A stretch of 64,000 bases of DNA, taken from NCBI GenBank assembly GCA_964387845.1, contig CAYLXA010000002.1, positions 160,001 through 224,000 on the forward strand, in the 5' to 3' direction. Below the pieces are notes generated by a model. The model was not told the origin of the DNA. It made no database searches and was given only the letters and a program-made list of their open reading frames with translations. The DNA is from an uncultured bacterium. Its GTDB lineage: Bacteria > Omnitrophota > Omnitrophia > Omnitrophales > Abzuiibacteriaceae. Of this stretch, positions 15,442 through 64,000 are shown one piece after another (the first letter of the stretch is position 1; every line of letters begins with the position of its first letter). The translations under genes were made by a program, and so were the position numbers.

Positions 15442-16632
15442 ATGGCAAACCGTCATTTCTTGACCAAAGCGATTGAAAAAATCGGAAAAGTCGACAAGCA
15501 AAATTTAGAACAGCTTGTCATCAGTCTCCGCCATGAGGCGCATTTTCTGCATGAATTGCTGAGCCGTATCCAGGAAGGCGTCATGGTGGTCAGCTCAAAA
15601 CTTGAAGTCAGATTTTTAAACCGAAAAGCCCAGCTCATTGTCGGCAGCTCCAGCCTTCTCAGGCATCACGAAACCGTGCGGGACATTGTCGAGGACGAAG
15701 GGCTCCGAGCGTTGATTGAAAAAACGGTTGAATCCGGCCAAGAAATTTATGACACCCCGGTCGATTTGTACATTCCGCGGCACGCCCAGCTCAATGTGTC
15801 CATTTTAAAATTTGAGCCAAGCCCCGGTGAAGCGCAAACCGAATGGAAAAAATTCTATATCGTCTTATTAACCCGGCAATCGGCTGCCGAAGAGCGGGAG
15901 CTTGAAAGAGCGCGCCACGAAAAAATGAATTCAGTCATCAGTCTGGCGGACGGCATTGCGCATGAAATCGGAAACCCGCTCAATTCAATCAATATTCATT
16001 TGCAACTGCTTTTAAGCGACATCGAGAAACTTCCGAAAAAAGAGCAGGCCGCGATTCGAAAAACCGCGCAAATCGTAGCGGATGAAACCAAGCGGCTGGA
16101 TTCAATTATCCGTAATTTCTTAAAAGCAAGCCGCCGAAAACCGATTGAATTCCGATCAACTCAGATCAACGACATTCTGAATCACGTTCTCGAGCTTTTA
16201 AAACCCGAAATCGTCAACAATCGGATTCAAGTAAAAACTTCTTTTGATTCTGCGCTGCCCAAATTTTTAATTGATGAAGACCGTTTGAGCCAAGTGTATG
16301 TGAATTTGATGCGCAATGCCATTCAGGCCATGCCGAAGGGCGGAAGGCTTGCAGTCTCGACGCAGATGCATAAGCGGCTTTGTATCACACAAATCGCAGA
16401 CACCGGAGTCGGCATTTCGAAAAAAGACATCCCAAAAATTTTTGACGCGTATTACACCACCAAAGAAGAGGGGAGCGGTTTGGGCTTGATGATTGCTTAC
16501 CAAATCATCGGGGAGCACGGTGGAAAAATCGAAATTGAAAGCAAATTGGGCAAAGGAACGGTCGTCACGGTCCTTCTACCGATCCGGACTGAAAAGCTGC
16601 AGCTCACCGGCCCAAAAAGGAGCAGGGAATAA
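15442..16632 (+). CDS. Cytoplasmic sensor histidine kinase (NtrB-like: PAS + HisKA + HATPase_c)
   Basis: No TM segments; H-box SLADGIAHEIGNPLNSI, N-box YVNLMRNAIQAM, G1/G2 boxes DTGVGI...GSGLGL; starts 4 nt after trpF stop. Confidence 0.85.
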   Translation: MANRHFLTKAIEKIGKVDKQNLEQLVISLRHEAHFLHELLSRIQEGVMVVSSKLEVRFLNRKAQLIVGSSSLLRHHETVRDIVEDEGLRALIEKTVESGQEIYDTPVDLYIPRHAQLNVSILKFEPSPGEAQTEWKKFYIVLLTRQSAAEERELERARHEKMNSVISLADGIAHEIGNPLNSINIHLQLLLSDIEKLPKKEQAAIRKTAQIVADETKRLDSIIRNFLKASRRKPIEFRSTQINDILNHVLELLKPEIVNNRIQVKTSFDSALPKFLIDEDRLSQVYVNLMRNAIQAMPKGGRLAVSTQMHKRLCITQIADTGVGISKKDIPKIFDAYYTTKEEGSGLGLMIAYQIIGEHGGKIEIESKLGKGTVVTVLLPIRTEKLQLTGPKRSRE

Positions 16633-18021
16633 ATGGAACATTTAAACAGCGGTATTTTGATTGTCGACGATGAAAAGAATACGCGTGAAGGGCTTCAGCG
16701 ATTTTTGGAGCAAAAGGGCTATGAAGCCCATGTTGCAGAAAATGGCGAAGAAGCGCTCAAGCTGGCCAAAGAACTCAATCCGGACATCACGCTGCTGGAT
16801 CTCCGCATGCCCGGAATGGACGGCATGCACTTGCTTCACCGGCTCAAAGCCGGACATCCAAAAATGGTTGTACTCATGCTGACTGCGTACGGGACCGTTG
16901 AAACGGCGGTTCAAGCCATGAAGGCCGGTGCGTATTACTACCTAACAAAACCGGTCAATTTGGATGAGCTGGAACTCATTCTCCGAAAAGCGATTCGCGA
17001 GCAATCGCTCGAGCATGAAAATCAGAATTTACGCCAAGATTTAATCCGCGAAAAGTTTGAAGAAGGAAAAATCGTAGGCGAATCGCCTGTGATTAAAAAA
17101 TTAATCGACATGGCCAAACAAATCGCAGGTTCCGCCGCTACGGTTTTGATTCAAGGCGAAAGCGGAACGGGAAAAGAACTGTTTGCGCATATGATCCATG
17201 ATCACAGCCCCCGAAAAGGCAAGCCATTCATCACGGTTCATTGCGCGGCGCTCACCGAAACTTTGCTTGCCAGCGAACTCTTCGGACACGAACGCGGTGC
17301 ATTTACCGGTGCAACGGAGCGAAAAATCGGCCGGTTTGAACGCGCTGACAGCGGGACGCTTTTCCTGGATGAGATCGGCGAAATTTCGGAAGAAACGCAG
17401 GTGAAGCTTCTCAGGTTTCTTCAAGAAGGCGAATTTGAACGCGTCGGAAGCTCTAAAACCATGAAAGTTGATGTGCGCCTAATTTGCGCAACCAATAAAG
17501 ATTTGAAAAGCGAAGTCGCCGCCGGGCGATTTCGTGAAGATTTATTTTACCGGATCAATGTTATTCCGCTGACTATTCCACCGCTTCGAGAACGCGGCCA
17601 GGATATTCCGCTTTTAGCGAATTATTACGTCCGTTATTTCAGCCGGCAAAATCAGAAAAAAATCTCAGGCATAGCACCGGAAGCATTGCAAAAACTGCAA
17701 AGCTACTCCTGGCCCGGCAACATCCGTGAACTCCGCAATATCATTGAGCGGGCAGTGGTGTTGGCCAAATCGGATAAAATCGAACTTCAAAATATTCCCG
17801 ATGACTTGGAGGGTTCTTCTGTGATTAAACGGCCTTCGGAATCGCTGCAAAAAGCGGAAACCGATAACGGTGTCCGGCTCACAGCGCTTGAAAAATTGGC
17901 CATTGAACGCGCACTGAAAAATGTTAACGGCAACAAATCTTTAGCCGCCAAAGAACTTGGCATTTCACGCCGAACGCTTTATCGCAAGCTTGAAGAATAC
18001 AACATTGGTGATTCAAAATGA
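16633..18021 (+). CDS. Sigma54-dependent response regulator (NtrC family: REC + AAA+ sigma54 activator + Fis-type HTH)
   Basis: REC domain ([10 protein letters not shown]...[11 protein letters not shown]), Walker [15 protein letters not shown] sigma54-contact motif, C-terminal HTH ([21 protein letters not shown]). Confidence 0.9.
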
Positions 18022-18139
18022 CACACTCTCGTTGTGTCATCCCGACAAAATCTGCCAAAAATATTCTCCAATCAAAATCTGACTATACATAAGTCATTTA
18101 TTAACAATAACTTACATAAATTAATATTTACAATCGATT

Positions 18140-18155
18140 TGGCATGTAATTTGTT
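18140..18155 (+). promoter_or_regulatory. Candidate sigma54 -24/-12 element upstream of dnaK (imperfect)
   Basis: TGGCAT-gtaat-TTGTT versus consensus TGGCAC-N5-TTGCW; GG at -24 present, -12 has GT instead of GC; lies about 60 nt upstream of the dnaK ATG and directly downstream of a sigma54 activator gene. Confidence 0.25.
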
Positions 18156-18215: not shown

Positions 18216-20144
18216 ATGGCAAAAATTTTAGGCATTGACCTCGGAACAACAAACTCATGCATGGCCGTGATGGAAGGCGGGGAAGCGAAAGTAATCGCCA
18301 ACAAAGAAGGGAACCGGACAACACCTTCTGTTGTGGGATTTTCAAAATCAGGCGAACGCTACGTCGGACAAGCCGCCAAGCGCCAGGCAATCACCAATCC
18401 TGAAAATACAGTGTTCAGCGCAAAACGGTTCATCGGACGCCGGACCAGTGAAGTCGATCGCGAAGTAAAATTGGTTCCTTACAAAATCGCATCAGGCAAG
18501 CACAGCGAAGCAGTGTTCAATATTGCAGGTCGCGAATATACGCCGCCCGAAATTTCGGCGATGGTTTTGCAAAAACTCAAAAGCGACGCGGAAGCTTACT
18601 TGGGTGAAAAAATAGAAAAAGCAGTCATCACAGTTCCCGCTTACTTTAACGACTCACAGCGCCAAGCCACCAAAGATGCGGGCCAAATTGCTGGGCTCGA
18701 GGTAGTTCGCATTATCAATGAACCTACCGCAGCTGCGCTCGCATACGGACTTGATAAAAAGAAAGACGAGCGCATCGCGGTTTACGATTTGGGCGGCGGC
18801 ACGTTCGACATTTCTATTTTGGAGCTGGGCGACGGTGTTTTTGAAGTCAAAGCCACGAACGGCGACACACATCTGGGTGGCGACGATTTCGATCAGCGCG
18901 TCATCGAATGGCTCATTGCCGAATTCAAGAAGCAGGAAGGAATTGATTTGTCAAAAGACCGCATGGCGCTTCAACGGTTAAAAGAAGCCGCCGAGAAGGC
19001 CAAATGCGAACTTTCCACATCACAGACATCCGAAATCAATCTGCCGTTCATTACGGCTGATGCCACAGGCCCCAAACATTTGGTTGTGTCGCTTTCGCGT
19101 GCCAAATTAGAGCAGCTGGTTCAGGACTTAATTGAACGCACTGCAGGCCCTTGCGAAAAATGTCTGCGAGATTCCGGAATTTCAGTGGATAAAATCGACG
19201 AAGTCATTTTGGTCGGCGGACAAACCCGGATGCCGGCTGTGATCGACATGGTGAAGAAAATTTTCAAAAAAGATCCGCATCAGGGGGTCAATCCCGATGA
19301 AGTCGTGGCGGTCGGTGCCGCGATTCAAGGCGGCGTTTTGGCCGGCGAAGTGCGTGACGTGCTGCTTTTAGACGTAACACCGCTTTCTCTTGGCATTGAA
19401 ACGTTGGGCGGAGTGATGACAAAGTTAATCGAACGAAATACCACAATTCCGACTAAAAAATCCGAAATTTTCTCGACGGCAGCCGACAATCAAACCGCTG
19501 TCACAGTGAAAGTGCTGCAAGGGGAGCGGGAAATGGCAAACGATAACCGCGTGCTGGGACTTTTCAATTTAGAAGGCATTCCGCCGGCACCGCGCGGCGT
19601 TCCTCAGGTTGAGGTAACGTTTGATATCGACGCCAACGGTATTGTTCATGTTTCGGCAAAAGATCTCGGAACCGGGAAAGAACAAAAAATCCGGATCGAA
19701 TCATCTTCCGGTCTCAGCAAAGACGAAGTCGAAAAACTCGTCAAAGAAGCGCAAACACATGCCGCGGACGATAAAAAGAAGCACGAACTGATTCAGTCGC
19801 GGAACAATCTCGACAATTTGATCTACGCCACCGAAAAGAGCTTGAAAGATTATGGCGACAAGGTAAGCGCAGATGAAAAGTCAAAGATTGAAGAGGCGCT
19901 CAAAGAAGCAAAAGAGACATTGAGCAAAGACGACGCGGAACTCCTCAAAAAAGCCGCTGAAAAACTGGCCGCCGCCTCGCACGGAATCGCGCAAAAGATG
20001 TATGAGGATGCCGCGAAAAAGCAGGGCGCTAAGGCCGGTGATCAACCTCAGGGAGAAGCGGGTTCTGAGAGCGGTAAAAAAGGTGATGTGGTCGACGCAG
20101 ATTTTGAAGTCGTCGATGAGGATGAAAAGAAACGCAAATCCTGA
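18216..20144 (+). CDS. dnaK: Chaperone DnaK (Hsp70)
   Basis: [18 protein letters not shown]..., DLGGGTFD, Hsp70 signatures throughout; AAGGAG RBS upstream of ATG 18216; no grpE/dnaJ adjacent. Confidence 0.95.
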
Positions 20145-20166: not shown

Positions 20167-20997
20167 ATGATGCACAAAGGTCGGCGAATTCAATTGGGCT
20201 TGCTGGCCTTTGTGCTTTTTTTCATCATCATAATCAACCCATCTCGGCTTGCCGCGGACGCGGCGCTGAAATCTTCTTTTCAATACGTACCCCAAAACTC
20301 ATCGCTCGCGATTGACCAAACCGTTACTTTGCAAGTATCGCTTCAGTGGTCGGGCAGCGAAGATCAATACCGGTTCGCGGTGCCTTCCATTTCAGCAAAA
20401 AATTTCGAACTCCTGCGCATAGGCCAAACCATCAAGCGGGAAGATGGATTCTTTCGGAAAGAGTTTGAATACGAATTCAAACCACTCAAGACCGGTTCTG
20501 CCGAAATTCCGGCCTTTCAAATTCCGTATACTTGCGATCCGAATTGTGATTCCGGCACGATTACCGTCGCCAGTAAAACATTTCAAATTACAGCGCCACG
20601 CAAATCTCGTGCACTTTGGTTAATATCGCTTATAATATTTGCTGTTTGTGCGCCGGTTGCGTTTTTTGTTTGGAAGAGACTGAACCGATCAGCGCCGAAT
20701 GCGTCTAATCCGATTAATGCAGATTCCGATCCGAAAGCCGTATGGATGCAAAAATTGGCAGAAATCGAAAGCGCTGATCAGACTCATCGAGAAAAAATAG
20801 CGGCACTTTCAAGGCTGCTGACACGATATAGTAAAGAAAAGCAGATAAGCAATGCAGACAGAGGGTTCAGCGCGCTTTTGTCATCACTAGAACAAATGAA
20901 ATTTTCAGGTTCCAATCTGAGCGAGTCTGATTTGAAAAATACTGTAAATCGGGTAAAATCATTCATTGAAAGCAATCAAGTAACCATGCCTTCATAA
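20167..20997 (+). CDS. Hypothetical exported/membrane protein (signal peptide + beta-rich ectodomain + 1 TM + cytoplasmic helical tail); paralog-like of the 22899 gene
   Basis: N-terminal hydrophobic signal, TM LWLISLIIFAVCAPVAFFVW at about aa 155, same architecture as the protein between DUF58 and the VWA genes. Confidence 0.5.
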   Translation: MMHKGRRIQLGLLAFVLFFIIIINPSRLAADAALKSSFQYVPQNSSLAIDQTVTLQVSLQWSGSEDQYRFAVPSISAKNFELLRIGQTIKREDGFFRKEFEYEFKPLKTGSAEIPAFQIPYTCDPNCDSGTITVASKTFQITAPRKSRALWLISLIIFAVCAPVAFFVWKRLNRSAPNASNPINADSDPKAVWMQKLAEIESADQTHREKIAALSRLLTRYSKEKQISNADRGFSALLSSLEQMKFSGSNLSESDLKNTVNRVKSFIESNQVTMPS

Positions 20998-21022
20998 TTC
21001 AGAATTCAACAAGGAGACAGCA

Positions 21023-22012
21023 ATGGAAGCCGGAATATCCGAACTGAACGAGCGCGTGCGCGGCGAACATCAAACCACTCAAAAGTTGTTTCAAGAAATC
21101 GGTAAGATGATTGTCGGTCAAAATTATCTGATCGAGCGGCTCATGGTCGGCCTTTTAACAAACGGCCATATCCTCATTGAAGGCGTGCCCGGTCTTGCGA
21201 AAACACTTTCCGTTAAGACGCTGTCCCAGGCCTTACACGCAAAATTCCAGCGAATTCAATTCACGCCCGACCTGCTGCCCGCAGACTTAATCGGAACGCT
21301 CGTTTATAGCCCCAAAGAGGGCAATTTCACGACCAAAAAAGGCCCTATTTTCGCCAATATCGTGCTTGCGGATGAAATCAACCGGGCGCCCTCCAAAGTG
21401 CAGAGCGCGCTTCTGGAGGCCATGCAGGAGCGTCAGGTGACGATTGGTGAGACCACCTATGAACTTCCGGAACCTTTCTTGGTCTTGGCAACTCAAAATC
21501 CGATTGAGCAGGAAGGGACCTATCCGCTTCCCGAAGCGCAGGTCGACCGCTTTATGATGAAGCTGGTGGTGGGTTATCCGACCAAAAAAGAAGAGAAAGA
21601 AATTTTGGAACGGATGACCGCACCGTCCGAGGTTCAAATCCAGCCGGTGTTGGATTTGAAAACAATCTCCAAGTTACGCGAACTCGTAAAAAAGATTTAT
21701 GTCGACGAGAAAATCAAAGATTACATTTTGGATCTCGTGTTCGCAACTCGGAATCCCGAACAATATAAACTTGATGCAATTAAGCCCTTGATTGCTTACG
21801 GCGCTTCACCGCGTGCCAGCATCATGCTTGCGCTAGCGGCAAAAGCCCAGGCCTTTCTGAAAGGCCGCGGTTACGTGATTCCGGAAGACATTAAGCAAGT
21901 CGGTATTGATATTCTACGGCACCGCGTCATCGTGACCTACGAAGCAGAAGCCGAGGAAATGAAATCCGAAGATGTGATTGGAAAGATTTTTGACCAAATC
22001 GAAGTTCCATAA
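21023..22012 (+). CDS. MoxR-family AAA+ ATPase
   Basis: HILIEGVPGLAKT Walker A, VLADEINRA Walker B, QNPIEQEGTYPLPEAQVDRF sensor region; AAGGAG RBS. Confidence 0.92.
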   Translation: MEAGISELNERVRGEHQTTQKLFQEIGKMIVGQNYLIERLMVGLLTNGHILIEGVPGLAKTLSVKTLSQALHAKFQRIQFTPDLLPADLIGTLVYSPKEGNFTTKKGPIFANIVLADEINRAPSKVQSALLEAMQERQVTIGETTYELPEPFLVLATQNPIEQEGTYPLPEAQVDRFMMKLVVGYPTKKEEKEILERMTAPSEVQIQPVLDLKTISKLRELVKKIYVDEKIKDYILDLVFATRNPEQYKLDAIKPLIAYGASPRASIMLALAAKAQAFLKGRGYVIPEDIKQVGIDILRHRVIVTYEAEAEEMKSEDVIGKIFDQIEVP

Positions 22013-22026
22013 GCGGGATTTGACGC

Positions 22027-22902
22027 ATGATCCCCAAAGATGTTTTAAAGGAAATCAAACGGATCGAGATCCGCACGACCCGGCTCGTCAACGACTTATT
22101 CGGCGGTGAATACGAGTCCGTCTTCAAGGGCCGCGGAATCGAGTTTGCGGATGTGCGCGAATATGTGCCGGGCGATGACATCCGGACCATTGATTGGAAC
22201 GTGACGGCGCGCTCTCAGCATCCCTTCGTCAAAAAATACACCGAAGAACGCGAGCTGACGGTCCTTTTTGTCGTCGACGGTTCGGCCTCTCAGCAATTCG
22301 GAACCACTGCCAAAATCAAAGCCCAGATCACGGCGGAAATCTGCGCCCTCCTGGCATTCTCAGCCATCCGGAACCACGATAAAGTCGGCATGGTCATCTA
22401 TACCGACGAAGTCGAAAAATACGTCCCTATCAAGAAGGGGAGGAGCCATGTTTTAAGGGTTGTCCGGGAAATCCTCTTCTATAAGCCCAAGCGGAAGGGG
22501 ACCCGGCTCCAGACAGCCTTAGAATACCTTCAAAAGACCCTCAAGCGGCGCGTGGTGATGTTTATCATTTCAGACTTCCAAGATTCCGGCTATGAAAAAT
22601 CCCTCAAAATCATCAGCCAAAAGCATGATGTCATTGCCATTCATTTAACGGATCCGCTTGAACGGAAATGGCCATCGGGCGGCATTCTTCAGCTTGAAGA
22701 CGCCGAAACCGGAGAGCCCATTCTTATTAATAACCGCTCTCGGCACGTCCGGGAGTTGTTCGAAAAGCAGGTAAGCGAGGAGCTCGGTGAAATCGACCGG
22801 TCTTTTAAGATGATGGGAATCGACAAGGTCAATATTGATACCTCAAAGCCGTACGCTGATCCGCTGATTCGTTTATTTAAACAGCGCGAGCGCCGAAAAT
22901 GA
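22027..22902 (+). CDS. DUF58 (VWA-like) protein, MoxR partner
   Basis: DIRTIDWNVTARSQHPFVKKYTEERELTVLFVVDGSASQ signature of the DUF58 family that accompanies MoxR. Confidence 0.85.
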   Translation: MIPKDVLKEIKRIEIRTTRLVNDLFGGEYESVFKGRGIEFADVREYVPGDDIRTIDWNVTARSQHPFVKKYTEERELTVLFVVDGSASQQFGTTAKIKAQITAEICALLAFSAIRNHDKVGMVIYTDEVEKYVPIKKGRSHVLRVVREILFYKPKRKGTRLQTALEYLQKTLKRRVVMFIISDFQDSGYEKSLKIISQKHDVIAIHLTDPLERKWPSGGILQLEDAETGEPILINNRSRHVRELFEKQVSEELGEIDRSFKMMGIDKVNIDTSKPYADPLIRLFKQRERRK

Positions 22903-23879
22903 AACGTGTTTTTGTTCTCCTGTTCGTTTTTGCGATGGCGCTGATTTTTACCCATCCCGCAGCGGTTTGGTGCGATGAAGCGAAAATATCCGTCACCGCC
23001 GAAGTGGATCATGCCTTTTTTACAATCGGCGACCGGGTCCGCTTCAAAGTAACCGCCGAACACGATCCGTCGATTCAAATTGCGCGTATCGATACTTCCG
23101 AAACATTCAAAGATTTTGAATTAAAAGAAGACAAAAGCTTTAAAACCGAACAAGGCAAAACAATCTCCGAAGGCAGGGAAATCGTATTTACCGGATATGA
23201 GCTCGGCGATTATGTCTTAAGCCCTGCGGTGATTTATTATCGCGAAGGCGCCGGTCAGGAATTAAAGAAAATCGAATCCAACAAGCTTTATGTTTCCATT
23301 GAGAGCGTGGATAAGGATGGGAAGCCGAGCGATGATATTGCAGGCATCAAAGGCGTCGTCAATCTGTCCCGCAAATGGGTCGGTTGGCTCATCGGAATCC
23401 TGTTCGGAGTTATGGCTGCCATCGGGTTCTATTTTTATTACACCAGAAAAAAGCAGTTCGCCGCCGCAATCAACCCTGAAAACCAACTCACGCCGCAGGA
23501 AGAGGCTTATCGGGCACTGAACCGGCTCGGAGATTCAGAGCTTCTGCAGCGCGGCCAAATTAAGCTTTATTTCGCCAAATTGTCAGAAATCATCCGTCGA
23601 TATATGGAACGCCGCTATCAGATTCTTGCGCTGGAATCAACGACTGATGAAATTATGAGCGCCCTAAGGCAGCGCGAATTAGACGGCAAAACACTAACAC
23701 TGATTAAAAGCCACTTTGAGGTCTGCGATCTGGTGAAATTCGCAAAATTTAAACCCGAGCCGGCAGAAATCATCCGTCAGACTAAACTGGCCAAAGAAAT
23801 TGTCGACATCACCAAAGCACCGGAGCTGCCTGCAGCAGATGAAGCGGCCGGAGCAAATCAAGCGGTGTCAAAGCCATGA
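22899..23879 (+). CDS. Hypothetical Bat-operon membrane protein (signal peptide, ectodomain, 1 TM, cytoplasmic tail; DUF4381-like position)
   Basis: Signal peptide MKRVFVLLFVFAMALIF, TM WLIGILFGVMAAIGFYFYY; overlaps DUF58 stop and the next VWA gene start. Confidence 0.5.
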   Translation: MKRVFVLLFVFAMALIFTHPAAVWCDEAKISVTAEVDHAFFTIGDRVRFKVTAEHDPSIQIARIDTSETFKDFELKEDKSFKTEQGKTISEGREIVFTGYELGDYVLSPAVIYYREGAGQELKKIESNKLYVSIESVDKDGKPSDDIAGIKGVVNLSRKWVGWLIGILFGVMAAIGFYFYYTRKKQFAAAINPENQLTPQEEAYRALNRLGDSELLQRGQIKLYFAKLSEIIRRYMERRYQILALESTTDEIMSALRQRELDGKTLTLIKSHFEVCDLVKFAKFKPEPAEIIRQTKLAKEIVDITKAPELPAADEAAGANQAVSKP

Positions 23880-24859
23880 TGGAATTCAAGAATCCTGAAT
23901 TCTTTTTACTCTTACTATTGCTTCCGCTGGTTTTGCTTTGGATATCGAGACGCAAACGAAGCTCGATTCGGTTTTCGGCAATTCAAAAATTCAAACAAAT
24001 TCGAGACCATTCCGCATCCCGCTTTTTTTTCTATTTGAATTTGCTTAGGATCATCGCGTTTGTGTTTATGGTCATCGCGCTTGCGCGGCCTCAGCACGTT
24101 GCCGCAGAGCGTGAATATGAAGCCAGCGGACTTGACATTATGCTCGCACTCGACATTTCGGGTTCGATGCTGGCCGAGGATTTTAAGCCGGTCAACCGGA
24201 TGACGGTGGCCAAAGAAGAGGCCAAGCGGTTCGTCAAAGGCCGGAAAAGCGACCGGATTGGTTTGGTCGTCTTCGCCAAAAAGAGCTATACACAATGTCC
24301 GCTCACGCTAGATTATGACGTTCTGATGAAGTTAATTGACGACGTCGAAATCGGCATGATCAAAGACGGAACCGCCATCGGCCTCGGAGTCGCCAATGCG
24401 GTCAACCGGCTTCGGGAAAGCGACGGTAAAAGCCGGGTGGTGATTCTGCTCACAGACGGCGACAACAATGCCGGAAATATTGACCCCATTACCGCCGCAG
24501 AGCTTGCGAAAAGCTTCGGCATCCGGATTTACACGATCGGAATCGGAACCGGCGGCATGGTGCCATTTCCGATTGATGACCCGATTTTCGGCAAGCGGTA
24601 TGTTCAGGCAAAAGTCGACATTGATGAAACAACGCTGAAACGGATCGCCGACATTACCGGCGGATTATTTTTCCCGGCACGTGACGCAAAAATGCTTTCC
24701 GAAATTTATCAGCGAATCGGCGAGCTTGAGAAATCCGAATTTAAAATCAAGGAATATTCAAGCTACGGCGAATTATTTCACTATTTTTTAATCCCGGGGT
24801 TTTTAATTTTGTTACTTGAAATTGGGCTCCGGCAGTTATTTTTCGTGAAGGTGCCTTGA
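23876..24859 (+). CDS. VWA-domain membrane protein (BatA-like aerotolerance protein)
   Basis: N-terminal TM, MIDAS motif DISGSM...T.G, C-terminal TM; operon context with MoxR/DUF58. Confidence 0.85.
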   Translation: MMEFKNPEFFLLLLLLPLVLLWISRRKRSSIRFSAIQKFKQIRDHSASRFFFYLNLLRIIAFVFMVIALARPQHVAAEREYEASGLDIMLALDISGSMLAEDFKPVNRMTVAKEEAKRFVKGRKSDRIGLVVFAKKSYTQCPLTLDYDVLMKLIDDVEIGMIKDGTAIGLGVANAVNRLRESDGKSRVVILLTDGDNNAGNIDPITAAELAKSFGIRIYTIGIGTGGMVPFPIDDPIFGKRYVQAKVDIDETTLKRIADITGGLFFPARDAKMLSEIYQRIGELEKSEFKIKEYSSYGELFHYFLIPGFLILLLEIGLRQLFFVKVP

Positions 24860-25881
24860 CCATGCAATTTTATCAGCCGGCTCATCTTCAATTTTTATGG
24901 CTTATCCCAATCGTGATTGCCTTGTTTTATTTTGCGGCAAAACGAAAAAAGAAAATTCTAGCCGGGCTCGGAAATCTTCAGACCCTGCGTCTATTAACGT
25001 CATTTCATTCTGAGTCAAAGCTGAAGTGGAAATCGTTTCTGCTGGTCACAGCATTGATATTTTTGGTTGTGGCGCTTGCGCAACCACAATGGGGCGAGGA
25101 AAAGAAAAAAATTAAGCGAAAAGGCATCGATTTAATATTTTTGGTCGACACATCCTTGAGCATGCTGGCTGAAGACGTAAAACCGAACCGGCTGGAAAAG
25201 GCCCGCTTTGAAATGCGGTCGTTTTTGAGGCATCTCAAAGGAGACCGGGTCGGTATTGTCACGTTTGCAGGATCGGGCTTCCTGCAATCTCCGCTTACAC
25301 TGGATTATTCGGCGTTTTCTTTGTTTGCCGATTCCATTGAAGTGGGCTACATTCCGGACATGGGGACCAGCATGAGCGAAGGTATTCACACGGCCGTCCG
25401 GTCCTTGCCGGGCGACACCAATAAACATCGCGCTGTCGTCATCCTGTCTGATGGTGAAAACATGGAAGAAGATATCCAAAATGCCATCGAATCCGCTAAA
25501 AAAGCAGGGGTGCGGCTCTATACGATCGGTATCGGAACCAAAGCGGGGGAGCCCATTCCCCTTAAATCCGAAACCGGCAAAATGAGCGGATATAAGAAAG
25601 ACAAGTTTGGGGAAGTTGTTATCAGTAAACTGAATGAACCTTTGCTGGGAAAGATTGCAAGCGAAACCGAAGGCTTGTACTTTCCGGCAACGCCGGGCGA
25701 AACTGAAACCGGCTTGATTTATCAGCATATTCAGAGCCTGGGTAAGAAAGAATTTAAGGAACAGCTTTTGGTCGAGCGCGAGGATCATTTTCAGAGTTTT
25801 CTCTTGATTGGCATACTTTTACTACTGCTTGAAACTATTTTGGGCGACCGGAGCAAGCGCCGTTATGCACAAACGATTTAA
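24856..25881 (+). CDS. VWA-domain membrane protein (BatB-like)
   Basis: VDTSLSM MIDAS, N- and C-terminal TM helices; overlapping start with the previous VWA gene. Confidence 0.85.
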   Translation: MTMQFYQPAHLQFLWLIPIVIALFYFAAKRKKKILAGLGNLQTLRLLTSFHSESKLKWKSFLLVTALIFLVVALAQPQWGEEKKKIKRKGIDLIFLVDTSLSMLAEDVKPNRLEKARFEMRSFLRHLKGDRVGIVTFAGSGFLQSPLTLDYSAFSLFADSIEVGYIPDMGTSMSEGIHTAVRSLPGDTNKHRAVVILSDGENMEEDIQNAIESAKKAGVRLYTIGIGTKAGEPIPLKSETGKMSGYKKDKFGEVVISKLNEPLLGKIASETEGLYFPATPGETETGLIYQHIQSLGKKEFKEQLLVEREDHFQSFLLIGILLLLLETILGDRSKRRYAQTI

Positions 25882-26896
25882 CTCTTCAATATTACTAAGT
25901 TGGTTTTTGATTCTCACATGGCTTGCGCTCTGCGGCTTTTTAGACAGCACTGCATCCCTCAATCAAAAAGCGAACAAACTATACAAAGACAAGCGCTATC
26001 AATCCGCTCAAGAGCTTTATCAAAAGGCTCAGGTCAGAAACCCAAAAAATTCCGAAATCGGCTACAACCTGGGCTCAACCTTGTATCAGCTTGATCAATA
26101 TGAAGACGCGCATAATCAATTCGAAAAATCGATTGCCAACACAAAAGACAAATCACTCTTGGCCCGGTCGCATTACAACTACGGAAATTCGCTTTACCGC
26201 TTAGGGCAACTCGAAGAAGCTATCACGGCCTACAAGAAAGCATTGGATTTAGACCCTAAGGATAAGGACGCAAAGCACAATCTCGAATTGCTGCTTAAGA
26301 AAAAGAATGATTTCGAGCAGAAACAAGACCAGCGGAACGAGCAAAATAAAAATCAGCAGGAGCAGCAAAAGAAACAAAATCAAAACCAGAGTCAAAATCA
26401 GCAGCAACAGCAGCAACAACAAGATCAAAACAACCAAGGCGGAAGCCAAAATCAGAAGCAGCAAAACCAAGGCGGTGGCGGTGGCCAAGATCAAAACCAA
26501 AATCAGCCCAAACCGGACCAAGAGCAGCCCGATAAAAATGCCGGCGGCAAAGGCGCGCAAGACCAGCGCAAACCCCAGGAACAGAACCAAAAGGACGAAC
26601 AAAACCAGAAAAAGGACCAAGAAACCCAAAATCAGCCTAAGCCCGACTCAAAACAGCAGAATGCCGACCTCGACCAACAAAAGGCTGATATGGAGCGTCC
26701 TGACAGCTCCGGTGAGCAGGAAAAGCCCTCAGGAGGCCAAGAGAGCGAAGAGAAGCAATACTTTCAGGGTCAGATGTCAAAAGTGGATGCTATGCGCATT
26801 TTAGACGCCTTAAAAGACTCCGAAAAGAAGATGCAGATTTTGCGCAGACCAAAGCCTCAGAATGAGAATGAGACGCCGCCCGATATGGATTGGTAG
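25865..26896 (+). CDS. TPR-repeat protein with long Q/N/K/D-rich low-complexity tail (BatC-like)
   Basis: Signal/TM then 3 TPR units (YQSAQELYQKAQ..., YNLGSTLYQL..., YNYGNSLYRLGQLEEAITAYKKALDLDP); about 150 aa of QNQ.../GGGGG low complexity; start 25865 chosen to abut the BatB stop. Confidence 0.75.
   Translation: MHKRFNSSILLSWFLILTWLALCGFLDSTASLNQKANKLYKDKRYQSAQELYQKAQVRNPKNSEIGYNLGSTLYQLDQYEDAHNQFEKSIANTKDKSLLARSHYNYGNSLYRLGQLEEAITAYKKALDLDPKDKDAKHNLELLLKKKNDFEQKQDQRNEQNKNQQEQQKKQNQNQSQNQQQQQQQQDQNNQGGSQNQKQQNQGGGGGQDQNQNQPKPDQEQPDKNAGGKGAQDQRKPQEQNQKDEQNQKKDQETQNQPKPDSKQQNADLDQQKADMERPDSSGEQEKPSGGQESEEKQYFQGQMSKVDAMRILDALKDSEKKMQILRRPKPQNENETPPDMDW
26310..26760 (+). repeat. Coding low-complexity region (CAG/CAA/AAC-rich; Q/N-rich protein segment) inside the BatC-like gene
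   Basis: Runs such as cagcagcaacagcagcaacaacaa; generates spurious ORFs on other frames and the opposite strand (26249-26629 -, 26307-26804 +). Confidence 0.8.
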
Positions 26897-62123: not shown

Positions 62124-62138
62124 AGCCCGTTATCTTTA

Positions 62139-62194
62139 GTTAAAAAAAAGAGGTTCACGGCATCCGCGGAATCGGATATTACCGTGAACCTCTT
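62139..62194 (-). terminator. Rho-independent terminator after the first STAS-PilZ gene
   Basis: 13-bp perfect inverted repeat AAGAGGTTCACGG / CCGTGAACCTCTT (62148-62160 / 62182-62194) followed on the minus strand by T8 (62139-62146). Confidence 0.7.
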
Positions 62195-62265
62195 ACTGGG
62201 TGAGAGAGACGTCCGTCTCTTGAAACGTAAGTGAATTTATATCACAACCATATCAGACTGTCAAA

Positions 62266-63000
62266 TCAAACTTGTTTGGAATCGAGAAATTGAATACCCA
62301 GCCCCACCTGGCGCTTCGACAACTCGATTCGCTTAATACAACCTTGAATCTTGACCTCCTCCGGAAAGCTTTCATTGGCCGGAACCAAGATAGTTACCTT
62401 GTTGCTCTCCAGGTCTGACATCTGTGAAACCTGAAGCGAACTGTCCAAATCCAGATATTCAGCGAACAAGCCGCCTTGGCTGATGTTGGTCGCAATCGCT
62501 TTAGAGTGAACCTTCTTGCCATCCGCGGTTTCGAATTCGATTTCGATCGGAATCGCCACCCGAATACGTTTACTCCGCCTGCGCTCCAGGCCGTATTTGT
62601 CATGCAGCAAGCCGAGTTCCTTTGGAACACCGGTATCCTTGTCCTTTTCGAACAAGAACGAACCCACTGAATCGGCAATTTCAGCTTCCGAAATACAGAG
62701 TTTGATATTTTTCGGCAGGTAGGTCCCCTTGAAAAACTGGGTGAACCGGTCGTTGGTGCAGAACACCAAACTTTTCTGTGGCCGGATCAGGCTCGCAATA
62801 AGCCGCCTAACGATCAGCTCGTCAAGCTCCTGGACCTTCTGCAGGTTCAGGATCACCCGCTTCAGTTTCTTTTTTTGGATGACGTGATCAATTTTATCGA
62901 TCACCTCCACCGACTGCTCGCCGGTCAGAGTTCCGTACAAGTCGAAGACCTGAACTCTTCCGATCTGTCTTTGCTCAACTTTTGGCATTAATGTTTTCAT
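62266..63000 (-). CDS. STAS (anti-sigma-antagonist-like) + PilZ fusion protein, putative c-di-GMP receptor
   Basis: N-terminal SpoIIAA-like pattern (IGRVQVFDLYGTLTGEQSVEVIDKID...RVILNLQKVQELDELIVRRL); C-terminal PilZ motifs RRSKR (RxxxR) and NISQGG (D/NxSxxG). Confidence 0.7.
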   Translation of the reverse strand: MKTLMPKVEQRQIGRVQVFDLYGTLTGEQSVEVIDKIDHVIQKKKLKRVILNLQKVQELDELIVRRLIASLIRPQKSLVFCTNDRFTQFFKGTYLPKNIKLCISEAEIADSVGSFLFEKDKDTGVPKELGLLHDKYGLERRRSKRIRVAIPIEIEFETADGKKVHSKAIATNISQGGLFAEYLDLDSSLQVSQMSDLESNKVTILVPANESFPEEVKIQGCIKRIELSKRQVGLGIQFLDSKQV

Positions 63001-63026
63001 AACACACCTCTCTCTTTCATCTAGAA

Positions 63027-63194
63027 TTAAAACGCTCGATGCCGCCGTATGCGTTCCAACGCTTGAAACTTGGCATGCATCTTTTCTCCAATATACCCCG
63101 TCAAAATCTCATAACCATACACATGCAGCGGAACCGCAAAGCGCCCGCTTTTCTTATGTTTCACTTTTAGCAGCTTATTAAATAACCGTTTCAT
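63027..63194 (-). CDS. Possible small basic ORF (55 aa) between the two STAS-PilZ genes
   Basis: MKRLFNKLLKVKHKKSGRFAVPLHVYGYEILTGYIGEKMHAKFQALERIRRHRAF; AAAGGGG RBS 6 nt upstream; no homolog recognised. Confidence 0.3.
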   Translation of the reverse strand: MKRLFNKLLKVKHKKSGRFAVPLHVYGYEILTGYIGEKMHAKFQALERIRRHRAF

Positions 63195-63210
63195 TGAGAG
63201 CCCCTTTACT

Positions 63211-63969
63211 TTACTTATCCAGATCCGTCAAAAGCTGTCTGATTTTCTTTTTCGCTTCCGCCGCAATTCCGTAAAATTCGATTCCAATTCCGACTTGATC
63301 GCCGTCTGCCTTGACGTGAATTACCTTGCCCTCGGCTTCAATCGGCATGTCGTCCGGCCCCGCGATTTCCAGTTTCAACAAACTCAATTCATAAGGATTG
63401 ATAATCGCTTTTGACTTCTCCGCGTCTTCCAAGTCGATGTACTCCGCAAACAGACCGCCTTCGCTCATATTTGTCACAATCGCCCGAAACTGAATCATCT
63501 TCCCCTTTTTATCCTTGCAGTAAAAAAACATCGGTAACGCGGTTTTGATTCTGCGAAAAAGCCTTTTGTCCGTCTTGGCATCCGTTTGCGCCATTTCCCT
63601 TCCAAATAGTTTCACAAGCTCCTCTTCTCCGTTAATCACATTCATACTTCGCTTTACCGGATACGCTTTAATCATGCTCATGACCTGTTCACTGCCGCGG
63701 ATCATTCCGCTTCGTTCCCTTTTGATCAAATTCTCCACCACTGCTTTCGCGCCAAGCGAATCCATCGTTTCGAGCGGCCTTAAATTAAGAACCAGCGCGG
63801 ATGCCAGATCGTTTTCGGCCATTGAATCTATTTCTTGCTGAACGCGAACTGCCCAAGGCCCCACCAAATCACCTTTAAGGTCCACCAAGTCCAACTTGCC
63901 GATTCTCCTTTTTACCACTTGTGGAAATTTAGCTGGCTTCATGCGCTCATACTCCTCGTTGGGTGTCAA
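63211..63969 (-). CDS. STAS + PilZ fusion protein (paralog of 62266-63000)
   Basis: Same architecture; PilZ motifs RLFRR and NMSEGG, shared GGLFAEY(I/L)DL block. Confidence 0.7.
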   Translation of the reverse strand: MTPNEEYERMKPAKFPQVVKRRIGKLDLVDLKGDLVGPWAVRVQQEIDSMAENDLASALVLNLRPLETMDSLGAKAVVENLIKRERSGMIRGSEQVMSMIKAYPVKRSMNVINGEEELVKLFGREMAQTDAKTDKRLFRRIKTALPMFFYCKDKKGKMIQFRAIVTNMSEGGLFAEYIDLEDAEKSKAIINPYELSLLKLEIAGPDDMPIEAEGKVIHVKADGDQVGIGIEFYGIAAEAKKKIRQLLTDLDK

Positions 63970-64000
63970 TAGTACAACAAGCGTGCCAACTTTATTTGAT

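Follow-up and report, generated by a model that had tools for sequence, protein, structure and literature searches.

To our knowledge, PilZ is the most widespread receptor domain for c-di-GMP, and the STAS domain forms the core of partner-switching regulation. Omnitrophota is an uncultured phylum of very small cells with a possibly predatory or symbiotic lifestyle. We analysed two neighbouring genes, termed A and B, in a 64-kb stretch of DNA (the window) from an uncultured Omnitrophota bacterium. The closest described systems are two-domain PilZ receptors: YcgR (PilZN-PilZ), B. subtilis MotI/DgrA, Borrelia PlzA and Klebsiella MrkH. Like A and B, they have a C-terminal PilZ barrel, an RxxxR motif in the linker together with [DN]xSxxG, and an N-terminal output domain. 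They are also similar to A and B in size (~210-250 aa) and gave structure matches for the PilZ half. The difference lies in the N-terminal domain, which is a PilZ-like barrel (PilZN, PilZN2, xPilZ) in YcgR, MotI, PlzA and MrkH, whereas it has an alpha/beta STAS fold in A and B. The STAS fold is not among the PilZ architectures surveyed (10.1101/814665), and the literature that we searched, including this survey, contained no description of a STAS-PilZ fusion. Such a fusion would let a second messenger act directly on a protein-protein switch.

Both genes are minus-strand ORFs, as the original prediction had placed them, and a small gene lies between them:

62266-63000, minus strand: gene A, encoding a 244-aa STAS-PilZ protein
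63027-63194, minus strand: orf55, encoding a conserved basic 55-aa protein with the invariant core VYGYEI.TGY.GEKMH
63211-63942, minus strand: gene B, encoding a 243-aa STAS-PilZ protein

The ORF of gene B extends at most over 63211-63969 (minus strand). Its start is almost certainly the ATG at 63942, giving 243 aa, because AGGAG is found 9 nt upstream and this start agrees with the N-termini of homologues. A and B showed 25% identity over their full length (E 4e-27), indicating that they are paralogues as predicted. They formed sister clades in an NJ tree, which is consistent with an origin of the pair by old duplication. The search for gene A homologues found 170 sequences. The ~200 homologues, the confidence of the structure models and the conservation of synteny rule out chance or artefact ORFs.

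The basic 55-aa ORF, previously noted as a possibility, is evidently a real gene and forms a third component beside A and B. It is separated from B by 16 nt and from A by 26 nt. Its homologues fell into four clusters, all of 55 aa, and three of the four clusters were on contigs whose length equals that of the contigs with B homologues P0002, P0003 and P0005. Comparison of the window with related locus L041 revealed 23 synonymous and 7 non-synonymous codon changes in orf55, and dN (0.061) was far below dS (2.99, saturated). No Pfam or NCBIfam family matched orf55, and in the homologue search and the related loci its homologues were confined to the subclade of the window. Nothing was found in favour of orf55 being a PilZ N-terminal remnant (KHKKSGRFAVPL).

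The domains and motifs of the two proteins are as follows:

62656-62982, minus strand: STAS domain of A (~residues 7-115), from Pfam and a profile comparison with SpoIIAA structure sequences
63589-63921, minus strand: STAS domain of B (~residues 8-118)
62818-62820, minus strand: Glu61 of A, in L-D-E-L-I, at the SpoIIAA phospho-serine position by HMM alignment to SpoIIAA
63757-63759, minus strand: Ser62 of B, in M-D-S-L-G, equivalent to Ser58 (in DSSG) of B. subtilis SpoIIAA, which is phosphorylated
~residues 146-240 of A, minus strand: PilZ domain without the C-terminal helix
63217-63567, minus strand: PilZ domain of B (~residues 126-242), C-terminal helix included
62566-62580, minus strand: RxxxR of A (R141-R-S-K-R145), where the low-confidence linker ends, R141 and R145 invariant
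62470-62487, minus strand: [DN]xSxxG of A (N172-I-S-Q-G-G177), from sequence comparison
63550-63564, minus strand: RxxxR of B (R127-L-F-R-R131), within the linker between the domains, R127 and R131 invariant
63454-63471, minus strand: [DN]xSxxG of B (N158-M-S-E-G-G163), from sequence and conservation

Pfam search and family-level matches bore out the predicted STAS-PilZ architecture of both genes. The STAS domain (PF01740, SpoIIAA-like) of A scored just over the gathering score (E 4.6e-5) and that of B under it (E 0.0026); the STAS profile matched 38 of 40 family members, and the agreement of profile and fold spanned the whole domain. For PilZ (PF07238), A was just over the gathering cut-off (E 5.3e-5; 23.9 bits, cut-off 22.5), B scored 35.7 bits (E 1.2e-8), and all 40 family members matched. 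The AF2 model of A had a pLDDT of 84.1, and Foldseek matched it to SpoIIAA, the PilZ domain of BcsA, and MotI. In both sequence and fold, the STAS half was closest to SpoIIAA, RsbV and RsbS; its structure matches also included MlaB and the YchM STAS domain bound to ACP. A canonical PilZ domain has a beta-barrel of six strands and, after it, a C-terminal alpha-helix (10.1101/814665). Both models had six strands and matched the PilZ domains of BcsA, YcgR, MotI and Alg44; each also had a short additional helix between strands 3 and 4. The C-terminal helix was present in B (residues 228-242), whereas A ended without one.

The original prediction that both c-di-GMP motifs are intact in both genes was correct. 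RxxxR, which is located in the low-confidence interdomain linker of both models (residues 120-143 of A are disordered), occurred without exception in the 65 sequences examined (44 of A, 11 of B and 10 of B-like type); for [DN]xSxxG there were few exceptions. Identity between the A, B and B-like clades is only 22-30%. Retention of both motifs across clades at ~25% identity indicates that selection acts on the motifs, and A and B are predicted from these sequences to bind c-di-GMP.

The phospho-serine position distinguished the two clades. We located Ser62 of B by aligning the A profile to SpoIIAA and carrying the position over through the A/B alignment. D-[ST]-x-G was kept in 11 of 11 activator-linked B sequences (the activator is described below) and in 7 further metagenome loci; outside this clade, it was found in one of 10 activator-less B-like copies and in none of 44 A sequences. 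The A sequences have E, P, A, Y, Q or H at this position, never S; one outlier aligned as IATSK, with T at the phospho-serine position. With no kinase in view, the conserved D-S/T-x-G of B could have a structural role.

The following elements flank the B-orf55-A genes:

63974-63988, minus strand: sigma-54-type -24/-12 element TGGCAC-GCTTG-TTGT, first base 46 nt from the B start codon
62142-62194, minus strand: intrinsic terminator downstream of A; the predicted fold is a long hairpin with 19 base pairs and an internal bulge, and U8 comes next

The -24 part and the spacing of the element upstream of B are canonical, whereas the -12 part reads TTGT instead of TTGC (GT vs GC). A search for TGGCAYN5TTGY in the 64-kb window revealed only one other match (18140-18154), with a REC-sigma54 activator gene on one side and dnaK on the other. 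That match is directly downstream of an activator gene, as is the B element in relatives, which supports the reading as a promoter. A third, related element (TGGCATGGAAGTTGA) is situated between a PilR-like activator gene and a pilin gene; this pilin promoter is of the same type. Equivalent elements were found upstream of B in eight related loci (L041, L043, L040, L001, L002, L049, L051 and L055). The -12 variant thus recurs both in these eight loci and downstream of another activator gene in the window. No clear -24/-12 element was observed upstream of B in the group of L003-L006, L052, L054 and L057, or upstream of A in loci lacking B. These sequences suggest that sigma-54 promoters of this lineage use a TTGT/TTGA -12 element; if so, this variant would aid regulon prediction in these genomes. 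The terminator region (62135-62270) had a minimum free energy of -44.9 kcal/mol (z = -5.1), and none of 200 shuffles was as good. In view of the sigma-54-type element before B and the strong terminator after A, B-orf55-A reads as one transcription unit. Rfam at gathering threshold gave a single tRNA and no c-di-GMP riboswitch.

The window stops at 64000 and shows no more than the -24/-12 element; the palindrome and the gene further upstream are described from relatives. An activator gene was located directly upstream of B in every relative that has a true B ortholog and for which upstream DNA was fetched (L001, L003-L006, L041-L043, L047 and L049-L057), and never at this position in ~45 loci without a true B ortholog. 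The original prediction had missed this activator, tied strictly to the B clade, as well as the sigma-54-type promoter before B and the terminator after A. The activators (326-342 aa) consist of AAA+ and HTH_8 only, with AAA+ starting from residue 26, a GSFTGA loop and no sensory domain. A GTAAC-N6-GTTAC palindrome was found in the activator-B spacer of L004, L005, L040, L043, L055 and L056, with variants in L006 and L049 and looser ones, identified by eye, in L001 and L003; among 30 control upstream regions it occurred in one, with different spacing. The palindrome is a candidate binding site for the activator. This sigma-54 activator is the only transcription factor nearby in relatives, and the window contains no candidate sigma factor. 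Since co-occurrence of activator and B is confined to one clade, it may reflect a single insertion rather than repeated selection for linkage, and an activator that drives B need not itself be regulated by B. No activator was present near the Planctomycetota members or most Omnitrophota A genes; thus, the general partner must be something else.

Taxonomic spread, as read from a representative-protein search and cluster names, comprises Omnitrophota plus distant members in anammox Planctomycetota. Gene A was present in ~70 Omnitrophota loci, and in nearly all of the related loci fetched, and is therefore likely a main c-di-GMP effector of this phylum. In a Brocadiaceae member, the gene divergently adjoins an HDOD-GGDEF gene, which ties this distant member to c-di-GMP. 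The "pilZ genes downstream of giant genes" reported in Omnitrophota (10.1101/2023.11.21.568195) are probably not A or B; their neighbourhood differs, with a secretion system upstream and transporters downstream.

Relatives' neighbourhoods were Pfam-annotated directly in L006, L041 and L043 and elsewhere deduced from conserved gene order by tblastn; other window genes were named by homology to these Pfam-annotated neighbours. No RsbW-like kinase or PP2C was detected among window ORFs of at least 150 aa, which cover all the non-overlapping long ones, in agreement with the original statement that no anti-sigma kinase is adjacent. RsbW-like kinases, PP2C and SulP were likewise missing from the window and from the fully accounted-for neighbourhoods of ~70 related loci, and nowhere in these regions were a GHKL kinase and PP2C encoded with an antagonist, as in a partner-switching module. 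Inspection of the ORFs in the additional space between B and A of L055, in search of a kinase, revealed small ORFs only. The remaining window genes are housekeeping and type IV pilus genes. Two PilB-type ATPases match Pfam MshEN, but neither has RLGxxLLxxG...Q, which we take to be the MshEN binding motif; the case for c-di-GMP receptors, MshEN included, as the dominant theme of this region is accordingly weak.

The reading that we regard as probable is that A and B are c-di-GMP-gated STAS adaptors encoded in the B-orf55-A unit; within this reading, a feedback loop with the activator would be the likeliest partner arrangement for B. Each protein comprises a SpoIIAA-type STAS domain, a flexible RxxxR-bearing linker and a PilZ beta-barrel. 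By analogy with YcgR, MotI, PlzA and MrkH, c-di-GMP would bind the linker/PilZ surface and turn the N-terminal domain. The protein-binding face of STAS would then become exposed or hidden, making STAS the output domain. Because A lacks the phospho-serine, it would respond to c-di-GMP alone. The B subclade, which carries a phosphorylatable D-S/T-x-G and is encoded directly downstream of an AAA+/HTH-only enhancer-binding protein, would be wired differently: the activator would drive expression of B from the sigma-54 promoter, and the B protein, under the control of c-di-GMP and perhaps also of phosphorylation, would feed back on the activator or on a factor controlling it. Action of B on the adjacent activator is possible from the gene arrangement, and this link provides a concrete hypothesis for how a sensor-less activator is controlled. 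In a stronger form, which we consider rather unlikely, B would represent a new type of partner switching: as a STAS adaptor gated by c-di-GMP and possibly phosphorylatable, it would exert direct control over a sensor-less sigma-54 activator instead of an anti-sigma kinase, in an autoregulatory loop on its own promoter, with A and orf55 as competing or accessory partners. If true, c-di-GMP would reach sigma-54 transcription by a previously unknown path, and PilZ would gain a new class of output.

The original prediction favoured classical partner switching, in which the STAS domain antagonises a remote RsbW/SpoIIAB-type anti-sigma kinase and PilZ-bound c-di-GMP modulates this interaction. Partner-switching genes can be dispersed within a genome, the STAS half is nearest to SpoIIAA, RsbV and RsbS, and B keeps the phosphorylatable D-S-L-G. 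However, neither the scanned window ORFs nor the examined neighbourhoods contained a HATPase_c-type Ser kinase, PP2C or alternative sigma factor, and the widespread A clade altogether lacks the phospho-serine by which classical partner-switching antagonists are defined. We consider a remote kinase improbable; sequestration of an anti-sigma factor or a transporter, as originally suggested, gained no direct support, with SulP also missing from the window and ~70 loci.

A role at the membrane is less probable still. The matches to MlaB and to YchM STAS with ACP could point to a link between c-di-GMP and the genes that follow A in most related loci reaching far enough, namely DUF1844, an LPG_synthase_TM-family membrane protein gene, Trm112 and the acetyl-CoA carboxylase genes accB and accC. 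These genes belong to a ~30-kb syntenic housekeeping block (thrS-infC-rplT-pheST-mgsA ... accBC-pfk), so adjacency carries little functional weight; moreover, DUF1844 is absent from the window, L041 and L042, in the window a strong terminator lies between A and the membrane-protein gene, and the closest structures are anti-sigma antagonists, not MlaB. We find it similarly hard to credit that the PilZ barrel no longer senses c-di-GMP and is structural or binds another ligand, leaving A and B as plain STAS regulators. Degenerate PilZ domains are known (10.1101/814665), and the marginal PilZ score of A and its missing C-terminal helix would fit such a loss, but both binding motifs are retained despite the low identity between clades, and Omnitrophota encode GGDEF domains (10.1101/2023.11.21.568195).

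Among STAS proteins, SpoIIAA, RsbV, RsbS, BtrV and SypA are single-domain, whereas A and B carry a fused PilZ domain and lie near no gene for a cognate kinase or phosphatase. A further differs from SpoIIAA-type antagonists in lacking the phospho-serine, and the input to A and B would be a second messenger, instead of or besides phosphorylation. The B locus of relatives resembles PspF-PspA and HrpS-HrpV-HrpG, in which an AAA+ and HTH activator stands beside a sigma-54-dependent operon, and the first gene of this operon encodes a candidate trans-regulator. PspA acts on PspF, and HrpV/HrpG act on HrpS; HrpG and HrpV form a partner switch on the activator. B has no sequence relationship to PspA, HrpV or HrpG, and we infer its interaction with the activator solely from gene order and co-occurrence. 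In Streptomyces RsiG-WhiG and Pseudomonas FleQ, c-di-GMP is bound directly by the anti-sigma factor or the activator, with no STAS or PilZ domain, unlike A and B; the concept is the same, in that c-di-GMP gates a transcription-initiation factor complex.

The elements considered here are, in order of coordinate:

62142–62194, minus strand: terminator 3′ of A, a long hairpin followed by U8 (region fold z = −5.1)
62266–63000, minus strand: gene A, a 244-aa ORF with c-di-GMP motifs R141-RSK-R145 and N172-ISQG-G177 in its sequence
63027–63194, minus strand: orf55, 55 aa, based on homologues and codon changes
63211–63969, minus strand: ORF of gene B, likely start ATG 63942 (243 aa from that ATG), with motifs R127-LFR-R131 and N158-MSEG-G163
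63974–63988, minus strand: core of a sigma-54-type sequence element directly 5′ of B, where the window reads TTGGCACGCTTGTTGTA

B most likely starts at ATG 63942, because AGGAG lies 9 nt upstream, homologue N-termini start at the same residue, and the alternative TTG (63969) would fall within the promoter region. A and B were 25% identical over their full length (E 4e-27), in agreement with their proposed paralogy. Pfam placed STAS and PilZ of A barely over the curated cut-offs; in B, PilZ was clear and STAS below threshold. At family level (mixed alignment), PilZ was found in 40/40 and STAS in 38/40 members, and the A-family profile matched SpoIIAA crystal-structure sequences across the whole STAS domain (E 1.9e-5). 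The family-level evidence for both domains is far stronger than the single-protein Pfam scores. AF2 models were confident for A (pLDDT 84.1, pTM 0.79) and B (pLDDT 89.4, pTM 0.78); no solved structure spanning both halves was matched. This domain evidence, together with intact RxxxR and [DN]xSxxG motifs in both proteins, confirmed the original prediction of tandem STAS-PilZ proteins. Both models place RxxxR in the flexible linker between the domains, where YcgR-type receptors have it too; the C-terminal PilZ helix is present in B and absent from A. The first β-hairpin of STAS carries an R-x-I-G...D..G signature that is invariant in both paralogue clades (A/B: R11/R12, I13/I14, G14/G15, D20/D21, G23/G24). 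It is not known as a general STAS feature and might touch the PilZ domain or ligand.

The fusion would be a PilZ receptor of known kind whose output domain is new. No description of it was found in the literature searched, and STAS goes unmentioned in a survey of PilZ architectures (10.1101/814665). Source databases name the proteins "PilZ domain-containing", "STAS domain-containing", "anti-anti-sigma regulatory factor" or hypothetical. When 1.84 billion representative proteins were searched exhaustively with a profile, 113 matched at E ≤ 1e-10, most of them 230–260 aa and aligned end to end; the family is thus small. All homologues with a source name came from Candidatus Omnitrophica/Omnitrophota MAGs. 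Judging by their labels, the 40 GTDB-representative loci were also Omnitrophota; those labelled only 'uncultured bacterium' have the same synteny, as do the 29 metagenome loci. Among the distant full-length members, those bearing names belong to anammox Planctomycetota (Candidatus Scalindua, Brocadiaceae, one Planctomycetes MAG). In two of these, proteins P0263 and P0281, Pfam found both STAS and PilZ, and their genes stand alone. In the Brocadiaceae locus L045 (3886–6765) the gene is monocistronic, with an HDOD-GGDEF protein gene as divergent neighbour.

The gene order, on one strand, is conserved: thrS-infC-rpmI-rplT-pheS-pheT-mgsA-[activator]-[B]-A-DUF1844-LPG_synthase_TM-Trm112-accB-accC-x-pfk-... 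A was present in nearly all loci fetched. A neighbour-joining tree gave two clades, A and B, the latter including divergent "B-like" copies. This fits a tandem duplication older than these lineages, after which B evolved faster and was lost in many cases; long-branch attraction could underlie the split. In all loci that carry a true B ortholog (at least 35% identity) and for which upstream DNA was available, the upstream gene encoded a sigma-54 enhancer-binding protein (L001, L003–L006, L041–L043, L047, L049–L057). This activator (326–342 aa) consists only of an AAA+ domain beginning at residue 26, with loop GSFTGA, a lid and HTH_8, and has no receiver or other sensory domain. It occupied this position in none of ~45 loci with A only or with A and a divergent B-like copy. 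The co-occurrence is clade-limited and may be explained by one insertion event.

Other variation was seen around these genes. In most relatives, on comparison with L001, L043 and other loci, a DUF1844 gene (~125 aa) separates A from the LPG_synthase_TM-family gene. It is missing from the window and from L041/L042, which have only a 142-nt spacer holding the terminator (62124–62265 in the window). Between pheT and mgsA, L041 has a LytS/LytTR two-component pair, and L003 (1626–6374) and L005 (31–5889) have very long ORFs of at least 1,582 and 1,952 aa, the latter cut by the locus end. These may be related to Omnitrophota giant genes, which are reportedly followed by pilZ genes (10.1101/2023.11.21.568195). 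In the divergent lineage of L055 (2489–4633), a 145-aa protein and a 563-aa PilB-like ATPase are encoded between mgsA and the sensor-less activator; by eye, the former resembles the N-terminal region of the latter.

The element 5′ of B has a sigma-54-canonical −24 (TGGCAC) and spacing; its −12 is TTGT, not TTGC. TGGCAYN5TTGY has just two matches across the 64 kb. The second match, TGGCATGTAATTTGT (18140–18154, plus strand), lies between a receiver-sigma-54 activator gene (16633–18021) and dnaK (18216–20144), directly 3′ of the histidine kinase and activator genes (15442–18021). The spacer between a PilR-like activator gene (42077–43447) and a pilin gene (41418–41885) holds TTGGCATGGAAGTTGA (41926–41941, minus strand). 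Three activator-adjacent sites share this form, which argues that it is the usual one for sigma-54 promoters of this organism, and they suggest a lineage −12 element of TTG(T/A) in place of TTGC. Like elements precede B in L041/L042, L043, L040, L001, L002, L049, L051 and L055; none was recognisable in the L003–L006, L052, L054, L057 group. An A/T-rich 'ATAGAAAT' box recurs ~15–30 nt 5′ of −24 in several loci. The dnaK arrangement suggests sigma-54-dependent two-component control, a mode of regulation that heat-shock genes would not usually have; an inverted repeat, GACACACTCTCGTTGTGTC, lies at ~18021–18039, and a complete BatD/MoxR/DUF58/VWA/BatA/TPR 'aerotolerance' operon (20167–26896, plus strand) directly follows dnaK.

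The activator-B spacer of relatives contains a GTAAC-N6-GTTAC palindrome ~100–250 nt 5′ of B (L004, L005, L040, L043, L055, L056); L006 and L049 carry variants, and looser forms can be made out by eye in L001 and L003. One of 30 control regions had it, with different spacing. It is a plausible upstream activator sequence. Activator gene and palindrome were seen in relatives' loci; the window stops at 64000, 5′ of B.

The possible 55-aa ORF between the two genes proved to be a real gene. Its homologues form four clusters, all exactly 55 aa, three of them on contigs equal in size to B-homologue contigs, and share the invariant core VYGYEI.TGY.GEKMH. Against the L041 copy, 23 codon changes were synonymous and 7 non-synonymous, and 25/34 substitutions fell at third positions, giving dN 0.061 and dS ~3 (saturated). 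In L043 its ATG overlaps the B stop codon. Among the loci compared it was restricted to the window's subclade, and family profile searches matched no known family. Bounded by the sigma-54-type element and the terminator, and with just 16 and 26 nt on the two sides of orf55, B-orf55-A reads as one sigma-54-dependent operon.

Phosphorylated Ser58 of SpoIIAA (D-S-S-G) aligned with Glu61 of A and Ser62 of B. D-[ST]-x-G was found in 11/11 members of the activator-linked B clade and 7/7 further metagenome loci, in 0/44 of the A clade and in about 3/16 activator-less B-like copies; all three groups keep RxxxR, and nearly all of the sequences also have [DN]xSxxG. Classical partner switching, with an RsbW-like kinase encoded elsewhere, is possible for B and unlikely for A. 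Against it, neither a kinase or PP2C gene nor one for a sigma factor was found among the scanned window ORFs or examined neighbourhoods, in line with the earlier observation that no anti-sigma kinase is adjacent. The genes downstream of A hint at a lipid or membrane role, but the terminator 3′ of A and the generally housekeeping character of the synteny weaken this reading.

The original prediction also named an MshEN protein as a c-di-GMP receptor, making such receptors the region's dominant theme. Two tandem PilB/GspE-type ATPases (45950–49404, minus strand) both have a Pfam MshEN match. The c-di-GMP-binding MshEN motif, RLGxxLLxxG...Q, is absent from both, so their binding of c-di-GMP is doubtful and the wider statement weak; PilB2 has a degenerate stretch, RLLDILRERKII...

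The best-supported reading is that A and B are c-di-GMP receptors whose output is a STAS protein-interaction domain. c-di-GMP would bind the linker/PilZ surface and re-orient the STAS domain, as we infer from YcgR, MotI, PlzA and MrkH. In this reading, A would serve as the phylum's general, phosphorylation-independent effector. For B, four lines of evidence converge: its strict co-occurrence with the sensor-less activator, the sigma-54 promoter in front of it, the palindrome, and the phospho-site that it keeps. Together they raise the possibility, a rather unlikely one, of a module in which B feeds back on the activator or its controller. The link of STAS-PilZ to sigma-54 control is suggestive and testable; the logic of such feedback would be comparable to that of PspA-PspF and HrpV/HrpG-HrpS.
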